Source: Candidatus Sumerlaeaceae bacterium (lineage in GTDB: Bacteria; Sumerlaeota; Sumerlaeia; Sumerlaeales; Sumerlaeaceae). Taken from it: a stretch of 64,000 nucleotides of DNA. The DNA lies in NCBI GenBank assembly GCA_049968255.1, contig JBMFRB010000002.1:153772-217771 (forward strand), in the 5' to 3' direction. The translations under genes and the position numbers were made by a program. Numbering within the stretch: position 1 is the stretch's first letter; the number at the start of each line of letters is the position of its first letter. A model generated the notes under the pieces. The model was not told the origin of the DNA and searched no databases. It was given only the letters and a program-made list of their open reading frames with translations. Below, one piece after another: positions 4,556 to 64,000 of this stretch.

Positions 4556-6781
4556 ATGAGTTCCCTTTTCGACAATGCGGAGTCCCTTGTGGAGCTTACA
4601 GGCACAGTGGATCGGGTTATTTACACGAACCCAGAGAACGGATATACGGTTGCAGCCTTGATTCCCAAGGGATCGCGAAAGGAAGTTACCATTGTCGGTT
4701 ATTATCTCAACGTTCACCCCAACGAGGAGGTTCGCTGCCGCGGTGAATACATCGAGGACAAACGTTACGGTCGTCAATTTAAGGTCCACTGGTACGAGTC
4801 CATCTTGCCGACTTCACTCGAAGCGATAGAGCGTTATCTTGCTAGCGGTGTTATCAAGGGCATCGGCGAGAAATATGCTAAATTATTATTGGCACATTTC
4901 GGCAAAGATATCTTTGACGTCCTCGAACATTCGCCCCAACAACTGGCCGAAGTTCCAGGGATTGGCCCAAAGCGGATCGAGAAAATTATCAACAGTTGGA
5001 ATAGCCAGCGCGTACTCCGGGATGTCATGCTTTTTCTCCAGCAGCACGAAATTTCTCAATCGCTAGCCCCCAAGATTTACGCCCAGTATGGCCCCGATGC
5101 CATCAATCAGCTCCGACGCAACCCCTACCAGTTAGCGATGGACATTCGTGGTGTCGGATTCAAACGCGCTGATGCTATGGCGAAAAAGCTGGGGATTCCT
5201 CCTAACAGTCTCGAACGTGTGAAAGCGGGATGTTATTATTTGTTAGCGGAAATGGCGGAGGATGGGCACACGTATTTCCCAGCTGATTCGTTTGTGCTGC
5301 GAGCGGCCCAAACACTGGAGGTTGCCGAAGACCTTGTCGTGCAGGCGCTCAATGCCCTCAAAGCAGAGCGCTACGTTGTGCTGGAGCGTTTACCGGATGG
5401 CGTGGGAGCTGTTTATCTACGACCACTTTATCAGCATGAAGTTGGCGTGGCACAACAGCTTGCAGCGATTGCATCCACTGCCAAACTCCTACCAAAGATT
5501 CCCCTCGAGGAGGAACTGAAAGCGTTCGAAGAGGCGCACCAATTTGAGCTTGCACCGAATCAGAGAGCAGCTATTGCCATGGTGGCACGCGGAGGCGTTT
5601 GCGTGATTACGGGCGGCCCGGGCACGGGAAAAACGACGATCGTGCGCACGCTTCTCAAGATTCTCGAAAAATACGGCTTGCGTGTTGTTCTCGCTGCTCC
5701 CACGGGACGGGCTGCTAAGCGCATGCAGGAATTGACCCATCACACGGCCTCCACGATTCATCGCCTTCTCCAGTATTCACCTCGCGACGGCCGTTTTCTC
5801 AGGAACCGCCAGAATCCGATTCGTGCTGACTTCGTTGTAGTCGACGAAACGTCCATGCTGGATATCTCGCTCGCGCATCACTTTTTGCAGGCTTTTCGTC
5901 CCACCAGTTCTTTGGTGTTTGTTGGCGACGTGGACCAGTTGCCGTCGGTGGGCCCAGGCAATTTCTTGCGCGATTTGATTGCTAGCGACTGTGTGCCGGT
6001 CGTGCGTCTTCGCGAGATTTTTCGCCAGGCTCGGCATTCATCAATCATTCGTAATGCTCACCGCATCAACGAGGGCGAGATGCCCGTCGTCAACCTGAAT
6101 GATGAGGCAGGCGAGTTTCAATTTTACCGCGCTGAGACCCAAGAGGAGGCGCTGGAGCTTATCAAGGAACTTGTTGGCACAAAGCTCCCCCAGACGCGTG
6201 GCTTTGATCCGAAATCAGACATCCAGGTTCTGGTTCCGATGCATCGGGGGCTTATCGGTGCGCAGAATCTCAATCGTGAACTTCAGATGCTACTCAATCC
6301 TCACGGAGCGACTCTCGAGCGGGGCGGAACGCTCTTTCGCATAGGGGATAAAGTGATGCAGGTGGCCAATGATTATGAAAAGAACGTCTTCAATGGCGAC
6401 ATTGGCATGATCGTGGGAATAGATCGGGACGAGCGCCTAATCAAAGTTCAGTTCGATCAGCGGATCGTTGTGTATGAATTTAGCGAGCTCGAGGAACTTG
6501 AACTTGCCTATGCAGTGACGGTCCACAAAGCGCAGGGTAGTGAATATCCTGCAATCGTGATTCCACTGCACTTTACTCACTCGGTGATGCTGCACCGCAA
6601 TTTGCTTTACACAGCAGTAACTCGCGGACGCCGGCTGGTGTGTCTCGTGGGACAATGGGGGGCTTTGCGCATGGCGGTCCAGAATATCCGAGAGACGCCC
6701 CGATTCTCGGCGTTGCACCTTCGGCTAAAACAACGTCTGGGTTCGCGGGAACTGCAGTCTCCCCAAGCGTCTAGCGCCTGA
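4556..6781 (+). CDS. recD2: ATP-dependent RecD-like DNA helicase (RecD2 type)
   Basis: 741 aa. N-terminal OB/HhH region, Walker A (ITGGPGTGKTT), SF1B helicase motifs (VVDETSMLD, VFVGDVDQLPSVGPG, YAVTVHKAQGSEYP) and a C-terminal SH3-like region. Collinear with RecD2. Confidence 0.85.
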   Translation: MSSLFDNAESLVELTGTVDRVIYTNPENGYTVAALIPKGSRKEVTIVGYYLNVHPNEEVRCRGEYIEDKRYGRQFKVHWYESILPTSLEAIERYLASGVIKGIGEKYAKLLLAHFGKDIFDVLEHSPQQLAEVPGIGPKRIEKIINSWNSQRVLRDVMLFLQQHEISQSLAPKIYAQYGPDAINQLRRNPYQLAMDIRGVGFKRADAMAKKLGIPPNSLERVKAGCYYLLAEMAEDGHTYFPADSFVLRAAQTLEVAEDLVVQALNALKAERYVVLERLPDGVGAVYLRPLYQHEVGVAQQLAAIASTAKLLPKIPLEEELKAFEEAHQFELAPNQRAAIAMVARGGVCVITGGPGTGKTTIVRTLLKILEKYGLRVVLAAPTGRAAKRMQELTHHTASTIHRLLQYSPRDGRFLRNRQNPIRADFVVVDETSMLDISLAHHFLQAFRPTSSLVFVGDVDQLPSVGPGNFLRDLIASDCVPVVRLREIFRQARHSSIIRNAHRINEGEMPVVNLNDEAGEFQFYRAETQEEALELIKELVGTKLPQTRGFDPKSDIQVLVPMHRGLIGAQNLNRELQMLLNPHGATLERGGTLFRIGDKVMQVANDYEKNVFNGDIGMIVGIDRDERLIKVQFDQRIVVYEFSELEELELAYAVTVHKAQGSEYPAIVIPLHFTHSVMLHRNLLYTAVTRGRRLVCLVGQWGALRMAVQNIRETPRFSALHLRLKQRLGSRELQSPQASSA

Positions 6782-52700: not shown

Positions 52701-53333
52701 TTATTTGCCGGATTTGCCTTTCCAGCGAATAATGTCGCCCGGCGAAATTGTGCCGTTGGTGGGGTCGTATTCAATGAAGGGCCCAGGATAAGCGGGGACC
52801 AGCACCGCGTATTTCTGGTCCGGGCCAAGACTGAAAAGCAGCCACCCGCCGTCATCGGTATACGAGCTAGTTGATGGATTGTAGAAATCAGGATAATACT
52901 GGAAGAATTTGGCGGCGGTTGACGCAGAGATGGCATCGAGCTGTCCTAGGACGCCTTCGCTATCACTGTTCGGGTTGCGGCCCCAGAGGACGTAAACACG
53001 GTTGAGAATGTCTGCGTCGACGTTGTTGAACGGATCCGGAAACACGGAAGTGATGTAGGCCACCGGGGTAGTGAACGCCGAATTGATTCTCGTCCGTGTC
53101 CAGCTTGCGTTGGGGCGGTAAGTCCGGTAGAGCTTGTTGTTATCGACGATATAAGCCTCAATCGCCGTGGCGAAGCTTCGCATGTCCGCTTTCACCCGCG
53201 AGACTTTTGCTCGCGTTTGGGCCTCGAGGAAGTTCGGTACCGCGATTGCAGCAAGAATTGCAATGATGGCGACGACAATCAGCAGCTCAATGAGTGTAAA
53301 GCCGCTGCGCCGCGAAAGGAAACTGGGCTTCAT
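52701..53333 (-). CDS. Prepilin-type N-terminal cleavage/methylation-domain protein (type IV pilin / T2SS pseudopilin-like)
   Basis: ATG at 53333 with AGGAG RBS. Class III signal with G|FTLIELLIVVAIIAILAAIAVPNF (the Glu+5 is in place). About 180-aa variable C-terminal domain. Confidence 0.7.
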   Translation of the reverse strand: MKPSFLSRRSGFTLIELLIVVAIIAILAAIAVPNFLEAQTRAKVSRVKADMRSFATAIEAYIVDNNKLYRTYRPNASWTRTRINSAFTTPVAYITSVFPDPFNNVDADILNRVYVLWGRNPNSDSEGVLGQLDAISASTAAKFFQYYPDFYNPSTSSYTDDGGWLLFSLGPDQKYAVLVPAYPGPFIEYDPTNGTISPGDIIRWKGKSGK

Positions 53334-53520
53334 GGCAAACTCTCCTTTTTTTGAATTTAGGGAGAAGTAGGGCAATTCGAAATAGAATCCGAGACCACTT
53401 CTTCCCTTTTTACTACAGTTGTAAATCATCTCGCTAGATGCAGTATTCAATAAAAATCTGCATGCGATTTGCGTTTTATTTCACATACAAATCTTTTGCC
53501 GCAAATGGAGCGTTCTTGCT
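53334..53520 (-). promoter_or_regulatory. AT-rich upstream region of the prepilin-like gene (putative promoter/regulatory region)
   Basis: A locally AT-rich stretch (…tactacagttgtaaatcatctcgctagatgcagtattcaataaaaatctgcatgcgatttgcgttttatttcacatacaaatc…) in an otherwise GC-rich window. No precise -10/-35 is assigned. Confidence 0.3.
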
Positions 53521-58240: not shown

Positions 58241-59158
58241 ATGAAAAAAATTCTAAGCCCTCACAGTAGGCTTACAATTTTCTTGGGGGATATCGTTCGA
58301 CATCTTCCCGCCAGATGGGTCGGGTCATTTAGCAAATGGGTTGGCCGTTTCATTTACTTTGTACGTCCCAAGCGCCGGCGAGAGGTTCAGAGGGCCTATG
58401 AAGTTCTTTGTCGAAAAGCCAACTTGGAGCGAGACCCGAAGCAGCTGACGCGCACCTTTTTTGAATGTCAGCTCATGCTGATGACCGGCGCATATTCGAT
58501 GCGAGAGCAGCCCGAACAGCGGTTCTACGAGCTCTGTGAGACCCAAGGTCTTGACAATGTCCGGAAGTTAGCCTGTTTGGGCAAGGGGCTCCTCGTCGTG
58601 ACTTTTCATTTTGGCACGCACCTGCTCAGCTTTGTCAAACTTGAGCAAGAAGGGTTTTCAGTAACCACCGTGCGTCCGCTCTGGATGAAGGATCTCGAAG
58701 GGAAAAAGCTCCGGCGGATGCTTTTCATCGACCGTGAAACAATTTACGCTGGAGAAGGGGATGGCCTGGCTAGCCCCGTGCGCTCCATCGTGCGGGCCTT
58801 GAAAGACGGAAAAATTGTGGGTTTTGCGCCGGATGGTGATCAAGGCGGTGCTATGACGGAAATGCCGCTGTTGGGTGGCCTTTATCCAATGCGCCGAGGA
58901 CTTTTCGAAATTGTGCGCCTTGCCCGCTGCCCCGTGGTTTACGCACAAGGAATTGTCCGCAACCGAAAGTACTATATTTGGTATTCAACGCCAATGGAGC
59001 CCCCAACAGATGGCAATATCGAGAACTTTTTGGAAGAGCTTTGGCTTTTTTTGCAGAAGCGTTTTGAGCAGTTTATTCGTGACTATCCGGAGTCCGTTTG
59101 GTGGACCAAACCGATGGAGATTGCTCTGAATTTAAGAAAAAGAGGGCAATCTTCGTAG
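58241..59158 (+). CDS. Lipid A biosynthesis (Kdo2-lipid IVA) acyltransferase family protein (LpxL/HtrB-like)
   Basis: LABLAT-family pattern: N-terminal membrane-associated region, GKGLLVVTFHFGTHLL (GKGVIxxxxHxGNWE-like) and the acyltransferase HX4D-region analogue. Confidence 0.6.
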   Translation: MKKILSPHSRLTIFLGDIVRHLPARWVGSFSKWVGRFIYFVRPKRRREVQRAYEVLCRKANLERDPKQLTRTFFECQLMLMTGAYSMREQPEQRFYELCETQGLDNVRKLACLGKGLLVVTFHFGTHLLSFVKLEQEGFSVTTVRPLWMKDLEGKKLRRMLFIDRETIYAGEGDGLASPVRSIVRALKDGKIVGFAPDGDQGGAMTEMPLLGGLYPMRRGLFEIVRLARCPVVYAQGIVRNRKYYIWYSTPMEPPTDGNIENFLEELWLFLQKRFEQFIRDYPESVWWTKPMEIALNLRKRGQSS

Positions 59159-59342
59159 CAGGGCCGTGGGGGCGCCCTGCAGTAACTCTTGACGGACTTT
59201 ATCTGGTTGGTCAAAACGGCGGTGATTAGAAGTGTGCTTGGGGCTGCGGAAAGCCCAAGCCGTCAGAAAAGCGAGGTAGAATGAACCAGAAAGGCGCCCC
59301 CAACTCTGGGAAATTGGCAACGAGGAGCTAAGCTGGACCAAC

Positions 59343-61133
59343 ATGTTCAAACCTGAGAATCCTATTATTGTGCAAAGCGACATGACGGTGCTTCTTGAAA
59401 CAACGGGGCCGTTGTTCGAGGATGGACGTGATTTTCTCGGACAGTTTGCTGAGCTAGAAAAAAGCCCGGAATACCTTCACACCTACAGAATCACGCCGCT
59501 TTCGTTGTGGAATGCCGCGGCCGCTGGGCTGAAGGCGGAAGCGATCGTTAGCCGCTTGGTGGGGCTGGCCAAGTATGCAGTGCCGCAGAATGTTCTCACA
59601 GAAATTCGCGAGCAGATGGCACGCTTCGGCAAGCTACGCCTGGTCAGAGATGACGCCACAGGAGAGCTACAACTGGTCTGCGATGACCGCGCTGCGCTTG
59701 AAGAAATCTGTGCTTCACCGCGGGTGAGCGAGTTTTTGATCGAGCGACGCGACGATCGAACACTGATCATCAATCCGGCTTACCGCGGCCGAGCAAAGCA
59801 GGTTCTCATCAAACTCGGCTATCCCGTCGCAGACCTGGCCGGATTCACAGAGGGGGATCCCCTCACTTTTGAGATTCGAGCAGTGACCCGCCTTGGGCTC
59901 CGGTTCAATCTTAGAGAATATCAGCGCGATGCCGTTGAGACCTTCTGGGCAGGAGGTTCCCGGGCAGGTGGAGCTGGTGTGCTTGTTCTGCCCTGCGGGG
60001 CAGGCAAGACAATCATTGGAATTGGCTGCATGGAGAAAGTTCAGCAACACACGTTGATTCTCACCACGAATATCACAGCGCTTCGACAGTGGATGCGAGA
60101 ACTTCTCGACAAGACCACCTTGACGGAGGATCAGGTTGCCGAGTATAGTGGGGACAAAAAGGATATTCGGCCTGTGACGGTGACTACTTACCAGATGATG
60201 ACTTATAAGCCGAGCAAGTCCGACCACTTTCCCCACATGGACCTTATCAAGCAGCATAATTGGGGGCTGATCATTTACGATGAGGTTCACCTGCTTCCGG
60301 CTCCAGTTTTTCGTGCGACGGCAGAAATTCAAGCGCGCCGCCGGCTGGGATTGACCGCGACACTGGTGCGTGAGGACGGGCGCGAGGACGACGTCTTCTC
60401 GCTGATCGGCCCGAAGCGTTTCGACAAGCCGTGGAAGGAGCTCGAACAACAAGGATGGATCGCCAAGGCGCGTTGCATGGAAATTCGCGTTCCTATGCAG
60501 CCAGAAAAGCGTATCGAGTATGCGCGGGCCGAGCTTCGCTCCAAGTATCGTCTCGCTATGGAGAATCCCGACAAAATTCCCGTGCTTCTCAGGCTGCTCG
60601 ATCTGCATCGCGATGATAACATCCTTATCATTGGCCAATACCTTGATCAGTTGCAGGAGATCAGTAAGCTGACCGGCGCACCCATTATCACGGGTGAAAC
60701 GCCGAATACCCAACGCGAGGAGCTTTATGCAGCGTTCAAGTCTGGGCAAATCAAGGTGCTCGTTGTCTCAAAGGTCGCGAACTTTGCGGTGGATTTGCCT
60801 GATGCCAACGTGGCGATCCAAGTGAGTGGTACATTCCGTTCACGTCAGGAAGAGGCCCAACGCGTTGGTCGCGTGCTGCGCCCAAAACCGGGCCAGAATT
60901 ACGCGTACTTTTACTCGATTGTGACCAAGGACACGAAAGACCAGGAGTGTGCCAAGCAGCGGTCTTTGTTCCTGACCGAGCAAGGGTATCGCTATCGGAT
61001 TAAGATCGTGGATCTCTCCAAATTGGATGGCGAGACTTTTGACTTCGATATGGCCGACGAACTCGTCGGCGTGGAAGTTGCTGCTGACACGCAAGTTGAG
61101 GATGAAGCCCTTCTGGAAGCCCAGGATTTGTGA
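59343..61133 (+). CDS. XPB/ERCC3/Ssl2-type SF2 DNA repair helicase (bacterial XPB homologue)
   Basis: 596 aa. The helicase core matches the XPB family motif-for-motif: LREYQRDAVETFW...GVLVLPCGAGKT (Walker A), IYDEVHLLPA (DEVH), LGLTATLVREDGRED, LIGPK, GWIAKARC, QEAQRVGRVLRPK, FYSIVTKDTKDQE and KQRSLFLTEQGYRYRI. An N-terminal XPB-specific domain of about 190 aa lies ahead of the core. Confidence 0.85.
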   Translation: MFKPENPIIVQSDMTVLLETTGPLFEDGRDFLGQFAELEKSPEYLHTYRITPLSLWNAAAAGLKAEAIVSRLVGLAKYAVPQNVLTEIREQMARFGKLRLVRDDATGELQLVCDDRAALEEICASPRVSEFLIERRDDRTLIINPAYRGRAKQVLIKLGYPVADLAGFTEGDPLTFEIRAVTRLGLRFNLREYQRDAVETFWAGGSRAGGAGVLVLPCGAGKTIIGIGCMEKVQQHTLILTTNITALRQWMRELLDKTTLTEDQVAEYSGDKKDIRPVTVTTYQMMTYKPSKSDHFPHMDLIKQHNWGLIIYDEVHLLPAPVFRATAEIQARRRLGLTATLVREDGREDDVFSLIGPKRFDKPWKELEQQGWIAKARCMEIRVPMQPEKRIEYARAELRSKYRLAMENPDKIPVLLRLLDLHRDDNILIIGQYLDQLQEISKLTGAPIITGETPNTQREELYAAFKSGQIKVLVVSKVANFAVDLPDANVAIQVSGTFRSRQEEAQRVGRVLRPKPGQNYAYFYSIVTKDTKDQECAKQRSLFLTEQGYRYRIKIVDLSKLDGETFDFDMADELVGVEVAADTQVEDEALLEAQDL

Positions 61134-61136
61134 GCC

Positions 61137-63878
61137 ATGAAACTCCGAACGATTCTTCAAAAGCTACCGCTCGAGCAGCTCCTTCAGATCGCTGAATTCT
61201 GGCAATTTCAAATTCCAGAAAGTGTGCAGCCGCTCGGCGAAGGCGGTCAGGCGCGGTTGGTTGAGTACCTTTATCCGCGCATGCAGACGGCAAAATATTT
61301 TTTTCGGACAATGGAGCGCTTGGCTCCACGCCAGCGGAATGCTTTGAAATTTCTTGCCGTGCATGGAGGTGAGCTTCCTGCCCGCGAAGTCATCGAGCGC
61401 TGTTTTGGAGGCGACATCGCAGGAGGGGAGAACGATCTCCGCGAGTTGGCCGCCAAAGGTTTTATTTATTTGGATGTTTCTGAGCCGGCGCATCCGTACG
61501 TCGTACTTCCGGAGAGCGTACGTTACATTTTCGAGCTTGGGACACAGCTCACAGGGTATTTGGGTGCGCTTCTCCAGCGAATGGCCTTCAACGATTTAGC
61601 GGCGCTTGCGGAAAAGGTCACGGGCGACAAGAGCTTCTGGAACATCCAGCGCGAGAAGGTGATCCGCCGTCTGCGAGAGTACTTGTTAAATCCGGAAAAC
61701 CTTCGGCGCCACATTGAGTCCCTTCCTGTGGACGAGCGGTTGCTTTTCCATGCACTTGTGGAGCGGGATGGCTATGGCTTTTACGGTGACTTATTGGAGG
61801 TAGGTGGCCGTCGGCGCTTCGATCTCAGTCGCACCCAGCAACTCAACTCGTTGCTCACGAGAAGGGGAATCGTTTTTCAGGTGTCAGACGGTGCGAATAA
61901 GTACGCCAACCTCCTCATGGTCCCGCGCGATGTTCTCTATATTGTGACGCATGATTATGCGCCAGACGTTCGGCCTTTAGAAGAGCTTGAGCGAATTGGT
62001 GGGGGCAAAGATGAATTCCGCCCCGCAATGGTTGTGGACAACTCGCTAGTCGTATTTAGAGACCTGGTCGTTTTGGGGAGTTCCATTCATGCGCAAAATT
62101 TCAAAGTTCTTGCAACGGGCGGACTTAGCCGCGCTGAGCTGCGGCGGCTTGTGCCTCTCCTCGGCCCAAGCCGGAGTCTAAAATACGCCACCTTCCTTGC
62201 CGCTTTTCTCATCTGGGCAAAGTATCTGCGACCAGTGGGGGAGTACTGGCGTCTTTCAGATTCGTTTTCCGATACGCTTGCGAATCCTGGCCGCTTGTTT
62301 GCGGAGCTTTTCCATTGGTGGCTCGACGTAAATCATTGGAACGAAGCGCATCCTGATGGGCTGCTCTGGGAGGAAGAGGAGCCAACACGAGGTTTCGTCG
62401 CGCTTATTGAGATGCGGCGGGAAGTGGTGCAAGCAATCTTTGCCGCTAACACTGCCGGAGCTTGGATTCCGTATGCTTCTTTCGAGGAGATTGTTTTACC
62501 CAAAATGGTGGCCGTAGCCTTCCCCGACGGTAAGGCTGACGCGTCGATGCGCGGTCAATTGCGCCGCATTCTTTACTCAATCGTCACGGAGCCGTTGACG
62601 TGGCTTGGATTGCTGTCACTCGGCGCAGCGGCAAAGACTGTGTTTTCCCCCGACAGTCCGATAGACATCGACGCTTTATCGCAGAAGAAAAATTTAAAAA
62701 AAACCGGGGTTCCTGCTCTTAAGTTCTCATTCCGTCCCACGGATTTGGCACGCGGCATGTTTGAGACTGGTGCGATTCAACCGTGCGAAGTGTTCCGCGA
62801 CGTTGCGCCAAACACCTTTCCGCTCTCCTTCTCTGCGGAGTGGCTGATTGTGCAGCCCAACTGCGAGATTGTGGCGCCACCGGACTTGCGGCTATCGAAC
62901 CTTTTGAGCCTTTGCGGGTTTTGTGAGGTCCGCAGCATTGACGTGATGACCTCGCTCGCCGTGACCCGCGAAAGTCTGCAGCGAGCCCTTGACCTGGGGG
63001 TTCGGGGACAAGATGTCCGCGATTTGCTGACGCGTTTGAGCCGCTCAGGGCTGCCGGAGACCGTTGATCAATTGATCACCGACTGCCTAGAAAGGCACGG
63101 GGAAGCATTTCTTGGCAGCGCAGGCGGTTACGTTGTGACTGAGGACGAAGGTGTCATTGAGCAAATCCGCTCGAACAAAGAGTTCGAAGACATTATCAAA
63201 GACGTGGTGGGGAAGAGCACACTGATCTTGGCACCGGGGGCAAATCTGGAGCGATTTGCCCGCCAGTTGCGTGGCCTAGGGCTTATGCCCCGAGTCGAGA
63301 CAGGTACTGTCGAGACTACGCGCGACCAGCGGTTCCACCTCAACCTTTCGGCCGAGGAATACTATGAGCTTCTCGCTTTGCTACGTCTTGTCGAAATTAT
63401 CGAAGAAGAGCTCGACGCCGAAATCGTGGATGATCGGGGACGTTCGCTTATTGACCATATCGAGCCCGATAGCGCCGGTTTTGCACTTATCCATGAAGAG
63501 GCGCAAAAGGTAGCCCTCCGGTATTCACGAAAAGTGCGTTCAGCACTGCTGCGGATGCGGTCGGAAATTGAGGAGAAGTATAAGACGCAGGTATCGAGAA
63601 TTGTAGCTAAAGCTCGTGGTCAACGAGGGGCAACGCGTTTTCAATTCCGCGGTGCCAATCCCGCTGTGGAGAGAAACGATATTGTTCAACTGCTGAAATT
63701 TGCCCTCGAACATGAACTCGAAACAGAGATCCATTACGTGAAGCGCAATGAAGCGGAAACTACACTCCGCATTTACCCAAAGAGCTTTGAGGGCAACCGG
63801 CTTTACGCTTACTGTGTGGAATCCGATCGAGAGGCCATTTACTCGGTGGACCGCATCCTGAAAGCCGCTCTCATCTAA
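61137..63878 (+). CDS. XPB-associated large protein: winged-helix-like N-terminal repeats, an internal domain paralogous to the XPB N-terminal domain, and a WYL-like C-terminal domain
   Basis: 913 aa. ATG starts 3 nt after the XPB stop. Residues around 610-720 (SLQRALDLGVRGQDVRDLLTRLSRSGLPETVDQLITDCLERHGEAFLG...STLILAPGANLERFARQLRGLGLMP) align with the XPB N-terminal segment (SLWNAAAAGLKAEAIVSRLVGLAKYAVPQNVLTEIREQMARFGKLRL...RTLIINPAYRGRAKQVLIKLGYPV). The C-terminus (EIHYVKRNEAETTLRIYPKSFEGNRLYAYCVESDREAIYSVDRI) fits the WYL-domain pattern R.V.P...WYL.A.C....R.FRLDRI. Confidence 0.6.
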   Translation: MKLRTILQKLPLEQLLQIAEFWQFQIPESVQPLGEGGQARLVEYLYPRMQTAKYFFRTMERLAPRQRNALKFLAVHGGELPAREVIERCFGGDIAGGENDLRELAAKGFIYLDVSEPAHPYVVLPESVRYIFELGTQLTGYLGALLQRMAFNDLAALAEKVTGDKSFWNIQREKVIRRLREYLLNPENLRRHIESLPVDERLLFHALVERDGYGFYGDLLEVGGRRRFDLSRTQQLNSLLTRRGIVFQVSDGANKYANLLMVPRDVLYIVTHDYAPDVRPLEELERIGGGKDEFRPAMVVDNSLVVFRDLVVLGSSIHAQNFKVLATGGLSRAELRRLVPLLGPSRSLKYATFLAAFLIWAKYLRPVGEYWRLSDSFSDTLANPGRLFAELFHWWLDVNHWNEAHPDGLLWEEEEPTRGFVALIEMRREVVQAIFAANTAGAWIPYASFEEIVLPKMVAVAFPDGKADASMRGQLRRILYSIVTEPLTWLGLLSLGAAAKTVFSPDSPIDIDALSQKKNLKKTGVPALKFSFRPTDLARGMFETGAIQPCEVFRDVAPNTFPLSFSAEWLIVQPNCEIVAPPDLRLSNLLSLCGFCEVRSIDVMTSLAVTRESLQRALDLGVRGQDVRDLLTRLSRSGLPETVDQLITDCLERHGEAFLGSAGGYVVTEDEGVIEQIRSNKEFEDIIKDVVGKSTLILAPGANLERFARQLRGLGLMPRVETGTVETTRDQRFHLNLSAEEYYELLALLRLVEIIEEELDAEIVDDRGRSLIDHIEPDSAGFALIHEEAQKVALRYSRKVRSALLRMRSEIEEKYKTQVSRIVAKARGQRGATRFQFRGANPAVERNDIVQLLKFALEHELETEIHYVKRNEAETTLRIYPKSFEGNRLYAYCVESDREAIYSVDRILKAALI

Positions 63879-64000
63879 CCCGAGAGCGAAACATTGAGGA
63901 AATCCAGAAAGAGGTCGCCTCAAGGTGCGCCTGGCATGGCAAGACATCGTGGATGTGGAGCTTTTACGCTGCTACGTCAATCCGGACGATAAGGTGCTTG

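Follow-up and report, generated by a model that had tools for sequence, protein, structure and literature searches.

Whether bacterial XPB helicases, which have been known since 1997, act together with a dedicated subunit is a question raised by a 64,000-nucleotide stretch of DNA from a Candidatus Sumerlaeaceae bacterium (contig JBMFRB010000002.1, positions 153,772 to 217,771; hereafter 'the window'), in which an XPB gene is followed by the gene of a 913-aa protein, here called the partner. Mycobacterial XPB (Rv0861c) is a 3'-5' helicase and DNA-dependent ATPase with strand annealing activity in vitro, the cellular role of bacterial XPB has been described as poorly understood, and bacteria have been stated to have no homologue of the TFIIH subunit p52 (PMC3353954). 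The analysis reported here found in the partner a domain homologous to the clutch of p52, and genetic linkage of the partner family to XPB in several lineages. We consider it rather probable that the two proteins, encoded in one operon, form a DNA translocase/helicase module of two subunits, organised in the same way as XPB and p52 within TFIIH.

A bacterial XPB gene and its partner gene

The two genes and their predicted domains occupy the following positions of the window, with residue numbers referring to the encoded proteins.

59343..61133, + strand: XPB/ERCC3-type superfamily 2 (SF2) helicase gene, 596 aa (NCBIfam NF045503 repair_heli_XPB; open reading frame (ORF) list)
59364..59750, + strand: XPB N-terminal domain (NTD), aa 8-136 (Pfam PF13625 Helicase_C_3, E 7.7e-35), corresponding to the NTD by which human XPB pairs with p52
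59904..61052, + strand: XPB helicase core with two RecA-like lobes, aa 188-570 (Pfam; Walker A, DEVH and RED motifs)
61131..61139, + strand: gene junction, with XPB stop TGA, GCC and partner ATG (read from the sequence)
61137..63878, + strand: partner gene, 913 aa (ORF list)
61245..62771, + strand: about four predicted winged-helix domains, approximately aa 37-123, 172-261, 305-373 and 423-534
62838..63287, + strand: predicted clutch-like domain, aa 568-717, a paralogue of the XPB NTD and homologue of the p52/Tfb2 clutch
63351..63614, + strand: long helical linker, possibly a coiled coil, aa 739-826 (AlphaFold2 helices 739-759, 766-775 and 783-826)
63672..63872, + strand: predicted C-terminal WYL domain (Sm-like beta-barrel), aa 846-912

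The upstream protein scored 847.5 bits against the NCBIfam equivalog NF045503 'DNA repair helicase XPB' (cutoff 610), the family that also holds mycobacterial XPB Rv0861c. The match is full-length, with residues 7-553 covering positions 1-547 of the 548 in the profile. Pfam domains were found at residues 8-136 (Helicase_C_3), 188-342 (ResIII), 367-570 (ERCC3_RAD25_C) and 411-514 (Helicase_C). The translation contains LPCGAGKT, YDEVH, LGLTATLVRED, EEAQRVGRVLR and FYSIVTKDTKDQE, and GAGKT, DEVH and TATLVRED were invariant over eight XPB sequences of 52-67% identity. A preliminary description of this DNA had recognized an XPB-type helicase from such motifs (one of them quoted as 'QEAQR' with one E dropped, a trivial slip), and the profile score agrees with it. 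As judged from its profile score and motifs, the upstream gene is that of a canonical bacterial XPB with an intact SF2 ATPase.

The XPB stop codon TGA (61131-61133) is separated by GCC from the partner ATG at 61137, and the two genes share a reading frame; coordinates and spacer are exactly as the preliminary description had given them. Because of this 3-nt spacer and common frame, the genes are probably co-transcribed and their translation is probably coupled. Promoter and terminator scans of positions 58900-64000 gave site counts not above those of shuffled sequence. Identical spacing was observed in the two closest relatives, loci L001 and L002 (both at 5995-6003). Readthrough of the stop codon would yield a fusion protein, of which no sign was seen. 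The partner is 100% identical to P0001, a protein of a Candidatus Sumerlaeaceae metagenome-assembled genome (MAG), and its NCBI name is only 'helicase-associated domain-containing protein'.

The partner carries a clutch domain related to the XPB NTD

The preliminary description had pointed to an internal segment of the partner resembling the XPB NTD. Pfam Helicase_C_3 (PF13625) matched partner residues 570-685 with E 4e-17 (62.8 bits; gathering cutoff 34.2) and was also matched in 17/17 members of the partner family. Direct comparison of XPB residues 1-170 with partner residues 560-720 by BLASTP gave E 4e-5, and hhalign of the two family profiles aligned XPB 6-161 with partner 568-717 over 149 columns (97.1% probability, E 5e-11). 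On these scores, the internal paralogy predicted between XPB and its partner is real and well beyond chance.

In human TFIIH, the p52 clutch (residues 306-399) has the fold of the XPB NTD and pairs with it pseudo-symmetrically (Greber 2019, PMC6422496). When the partner-family profile was searched against all PDB sequences, it retrieved the human XPB NTD (residues 117-196, E about 1e-5), yeast Tfb2 (338-417, E 5e-3) and human p52 (304-373, E 0.013), the last of these inside the clutch; no solved structure of a bacterial family member was found in this search. Partner T610 aligns with human XPB T119, and Thr or Ser is kept at this position in 15/17 members, a further likeness to TFIIH. T119 is a trichothiodystrophy site and is conserved in the p52 clutch (Greber et al., PMC6422496).

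Predicted architecture of the partner

An AlphaFold2 model of the partner, built from a 17-sequence alignment (mean predicted local distance difference test (pLDDT) score 79.4), showed about four winged-helix-like units (37-534), an alpha/beta domain (570-717), helices (739-826) and a beta-barrel (846-912). The model thus reproduces the tandem winged helices that had been proposed for the N-terminus. In a Foldseek search of the whole PDB with the full-length model, TFIIH p52 chains ranked first (8ebu_D, E 5e-7, about 600 aligned columns), including yeast Tfb2 and the Chaetomium p52-p8 crystal structure. They were followed by XPB NTD chains (about 200 columns) and then by the WYL proteins PafBC, BrxR, CapW and DriD. 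A Bax1-like nuclease, the kind of partner known beside archaeal XPB, was rejected as a candidate: the partner had no Bax1 or nuclease Pfam match at E<=1, and there was none among the fold matches listed, in line with the preliminary description.

The barrel at the C-terminus is predicted to be five-stranded and Sm-like, as in the WYL fold. The Pfam WYL profile (PF13280) matched 15/17 aligned members at E<=1, with P0015 above the cutoff at 25.1 bits and two distant members at 58.5 and 35.6 bits. The WYL domain assigned by the preliminary description is therefore significant across the family as well as in the predicted structure. PafBC and DriD use their WYL domains to recognise a nucleic-acid cue such as single-stranded DNA, and by analogy the WYL domain of the partner is likely a single-stranded-DNA sensor; its conserved residues include P881, Y890, A891 and R906.

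Size and composition of the partner family

Word-indexed homologue searches revealed little beyond Sumerlaeota, and an exhaustive profile search over 1.84 billion representatives (50%-identity) was needed to reveal the family. It comprised 5894 representatives at E<=1e-3, 2490 at E<=1e-10 and 231 at E<=1e-30, where the weaker matches may include XPB itself through its NTD. Named members belong to Sumerlaeota, Chloroflexota and Armatimonadota (Chthonomonadaceae), with single members from a Chloroherpetonaceae MAG and a 'proteobacterium' MAG. Among 139 representatives of 600-1000 aa, the clutch was present in all (139/139), the N-terminal region in 133, the WYL tail in 66 and the helical linker in just 38; of 101 distant representatives, 31 had the WYL tail. 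As far as profile matches tell, the family has two architectures, namely a core form of about 700-850 aa with winged helices and clutch, and a longer form with WYL.

Winged helices combined with WYL are the architecture of known WYL regulators, and the partner could accordingly be a transcription factor of the PafBC, DriD, BrxR or CapW kind, with promoter-binding winged helices and a WYL domain that senses single-stranded DNA. Such a factor would control xpb, perhaps together with a damage regulon, and would not associate stably with the helicase. WYL regulators were the best structural matches of the C-terminus and MarR-type repressors those of the individual N-terminal domains, and regulators often adjoin their targets. 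However, the known WYL regulators reach only a third of the partner's size. The partner has four predicted winged helices where they have one, carries the clutch in addition, lacks their WCX extension after WYL and is operonic with a helicase, whereas they stand alone. Furthermore, 68 of the 139 representatives combine the N-terminal region and clutch with no WYL, and the partner gene follows xpb at spacers of 3 nt or overlaps of 4 nt, which suggests stoichiometric co-production more than regulation. A regulator of this kind therefore appears unlikely to us.

Linkage of XPB and partner across genomes

The association of the two genes was surveyed in a species-representative genome collection, which contained 20 Sumerlaeota loci encoding the partner. 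XPB was directly upstream of the partner in 14/20, with partner identity ranging from 78% down to about 31% and with differing flanks. The gap between the genes was -23 to +46 nt in 10 of these 14 linked loci, including four 4-nt ATGA overlaps. Among the remaining loci, one had XPB 3 kb upstream and two were truncated upstream of the partner. The order was reversed in a Chloroflexota locus, where the partner precedes XPB. One further locus, with XPB 3 kb downstream of the partner, had DUF3027 and cold-shock protein genes as neighbours and was actinobacterial-looking.

Metagenome contigs were scanned from the side of XPB, using the best 80 of at least 589 loci (49-60% identity), which were best-scoring rather than random or taxonomically balanced. 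Partners were called with the family hidden Markov model (HMM) on heuristic ORF calls, and the resulting fractions are indicative. A partner was present within 3 kb in 24/31 loci having at least 3 kb on both sides, and within 6 kb in 11/16 loci having at least 6 kb on both sides. Its start lay within 600 nt downstream on the same strand in 27 of the 50 loci with at least 2.5 kb downstream. Chance proximity of XPB and partner would be expected at about 0.2%, on the assumption that the gene is roughly single-copy and the genome several Mb in size. The pairing thus recurs across phyla far above chance, but it is common rather than universal.

Two tandem partner paralogues were observed in 9/80 XPB loci (L038, L048, L054, L056, L060, L064, L086, L100 and L106), usually in the order XPB-A-B and of about 750-820 aa each. 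This arrangement suggests that some lineages may have two p52-like subunits forming a heteromer. No fusion of XPB and partner was found: the long stop-to-stop XPB segments in L082, L089, L097 and L109 contain XPB domains only, and P0100 and P0161 are partner-only proteins.

A third conserved component (a nuclease, XPD/DinG or p8) was considered and rejected, since BLAST clustering of the ORFs around the 80 XPB loci gave only the partner; the other large ORF clusters were alternative-frame ORFs inside xpb. Genes for p8, p34, p44 and p62 were not among the conserved neighbours of the XPB loci.

Gene context and the question of a defence role

The genes flanking the pair vary between lineages and are of housekeeping type, encoding lipid A acyltransferase, RNA methyltransferase, GGDEF and PP-loop proteins and ribosomal protein S1. 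Five Sumerlaeota loci had a GGDEF diguanylate cyclase gene directly downstream of the partner (L004:9010-9975 and homologues in L005, L007, L012 and L017), an arrangement that probably reflects synteny within a lineage and not membership of the module. Genes near the partners of L008, L012 and L018 encode, among others, ribosomal protein S1, a GGDEF protein and a subtilase.

The preliminary description had left open whether the pair is a DNA-repair or a defence unit, and an anti-phage or anti-plasmid system would here have XPB as its helicase effector and the partner, with its WYL domain, as sensor or regulator. XPB did match the PADLOC PbeA helicase models in part (best E 1.8e-30), although this concerned the generic C-terminal helicase lobe only. 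WYL domains are frequent in defence-island regulators, as the BrxR and CapW fold matches recall. The only defence-like neighbour seen was an Eco57I/MmeI-type restriction-modification methylase 1.5 kb downstream of a partner-less XPB (L080:13129-16365, - strand; GC content 0.38). The partner itself, however, matched 0 families in PADLOC-DB v2, and no relatives were present on 2.9 million viral contigs. No nuclease or other effector is conserved nearby, and the neighbours are the variable housekeeping genes named above. The pair occurs in most of the Sumerlaeota loci recovered, with its order kept throughout the divergence of the partner, and GC content is level at about 0.53 over the window, with no compositional anomaly; nothing indicated a mobile element. 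The defence option is thus left without support and was discarded as the main interpretation; we regard it as highly improbable. The gene context instead argues for a role of XPB and partner in chromosomal housekeeping, in DNA repair or at stalled transcription complexes.

Outside the gene pair, a 249-aa ORF with a type IV pilin-like prepilin motif (GFTLIELLIVVAIIAILAAIA) in its translation was observed at window positions 52701-53450 on the - strand.

A proposed XPB-partner module

In the module proposed here, the clutch of the partner would pair with the XPB NTD through their beta-sheets, giving a pseudo-symmetric heterodimer as in p52. This pairing would anchor XPB and probably stimulate its ATPase; stimulation of XPB by p52 is given as established for TFIIH in Balasingham 2012, citing Coin 2007 (PMC3353954). 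The motor may be positioned by the winged-helix array, through its contacts with duplex DNA or with some other protein, perhaps RNA polymerase. In the forms that have it, the WYL domain would bind single-stranded DNA or another nucleic-acid cue, like PafBC and DriD, and the motor would then be brought to, or activated on, DNA in which a bubble, a gap or a stalled complex is already present. Gene structure, domain homologies and linkage are shown by the data, and the complex, the ATPase stimulation and the WYL ligand are what we infer.

Several observations weigh against this proposal, and the first of them concern the likeness to p52. Partner residues 1-560, folded alone (pLDDT 81.6), gave no significant match in the PDB. 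The best E value was 0.08 (TFIIIC tauB), and p52 chains appeared at E 0.18-0.8 amid RPC62, STK19, SarS and other tandem-winged-helix proteins. No Tfb2_C domain, by which p52 binds p8/Tfb5, was matched by Pfam in the partner at E<=1, and no p8-like dimerisation module was detected. Since the N-terminal half alone had no significant PDB match, the claim of p52 homology was limited to the clutch and full p52 orthology was dropped. The Tfb2-like winged helices that the preliminary description had thought possible were not recovered by HMM search either. Pfam Tfb2 (PF03849) had no match in the window partner at E<=1 and matched 7/17 members with at best 25 bits, P0161 with 33.8 bits and several distant members, all under the cutoff of 34.5, and these matches span only the clutch end of the profile (about 248-357, the last 30-110 positions). 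The proposed bacterial p52 analogue hence stands as regards clutch homology and the p52 folds heading the full-length search; its N-terminal array resembles that of p52 in architecture, and Tfb2_C was not detected. Judged by its domains, the partner is p52-like in design with one homologous domain, and not a member of the Pfam Tfb2 family.

The WYL domain raises a second reservation. The window partner taken alone scored 15.8 bits against a cutoff of 21.8, and the tail is absent from about half of the family. Because of this absence, WYL sensing is not the core mechanism.

Thirdly, the genes are not always together. No XPB was present within 6 kb upstream of the full-length, clutch-bearing partner in the Sumerlaeota loci L008, L012 and L018. 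In the loci of P0177 and P0173, the family members lie beside lytB with no XPB nearby, and several XPB loci with 9-10 kb flanks had unrelated neighbours and no partner. Pairing is therefore not obligatory in cis. These same loci would suit two independent neighbours that merely share a domain, the Helicase_C_3 fold then being a general module for binding DNA or damage that has been put to use in two unrelated proteins. Linkage in both orders (partner downstream in Sumerlaeota, upstream in Chloroflexota) and on diverse unclassified metagenomic contigs, at hundreds of times the chance level, speaks against such coincidence, as do the tight and probably translationally coupled junctions. We therefore think it very unlikely that the two genes are independent.

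A functional lead in favour of the module comes from Mycobacterium tuberculosis. In a transposon screen of this species, ercc3 (Rv0861c; log fold change (LFC) -1.45) and the adjacent 'hypothetical protein' Rv0862c (LFC -1.68) were both rifampin-hypersusceptible, and both were also significantly depleted under starvation plus rifampin and not significant in the isoniazid screens (PMC10534295). If Rv0862c is a member of the partner family, this shared drug-specific phenotype also speaks against independent neighbours. Rv0862c is, however, a putative member, and insertions in it could be polar on ercc3.

Comparison with known XPB systems

The system that most resembles the proposed module is XPB-p52(-p8) of TFIIH (human GTF2H4/p52, yeast Tfb2), in which the helicase has the same N-terminal domain and the clutch of p52, itself a homologue of that domain, likewise comes after winged helices at the N-terminus. 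Unlike p52, the partner is about twice as long and has the helical linker and WYL in place of the Tfb2_C/p8-binding domain. Archaeal XPB-Bax1 offers another prokaryotic XPB adjoining a dedicated partner gene. Any contact of the present partner with XPB would, unlike that of Bax1, be made through the NTD-like domain. The N-terminal domain of XPB is missing altogether from some archaeal homologues, among them the A. fulgidus protein that served for structure determination (Greber 2019, PMC6422496). In the mycobacterial studies, XPB was assayed alone and the neighbouring gene was not considered (PMC3353954).

A bolder interpretation can be drawn from these likenesses, in which XPB and partner are the true bacterial counterpart of the TFIIH XPB-p52 module, and the NTD-clutch heterodimer is pre-eukaryotic or was exchanged with eukaryotes. 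The substrate of the bacterial module would be DNA bound by RNA polymerase, where it might for instance remove or remodel initiation or elongation complexes that have stalled, while exposed single-stranded DNA is read by the WYL domain. Such a role would account for the rifampin-specific hypersusceptibility seen with both M. tuberculosis ercc3 and its neighbour. We put this forward tentatively and as a somewhat doubtful extension of the two-subunit module.

Implications

Overall, the interpretation given in the preliminary description is supported. XPB with a clutch-bearing regulatory subunit is of a known kind, represented here by a so far undescribed variant from bacteria that includes a WYL module, and no description of the partner family was found in the searchable literature (subscription-only papers being outside its scope). 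The partner family is widespread and unstudied, carries the p52 clutch and is genetically linked to XPB, and thereby offers an experimentally tractable route to testing the function of bacterial XPB. It suggests the biochemical hypothesis of a partner-stimulated XPB motor, gated by single-stranded DNA in the WYL-bearing forms, and the enzyme may have been incomplete in earlier assays, which used XPB by itself. The XPB-p52 interface is mutated in human xeroderma pigmentosum and trichothiodystrophy, and the bacterial pair would provide a simple two-protein model for it. The finding is also relevant to how the TFIIH core originated in evolution.

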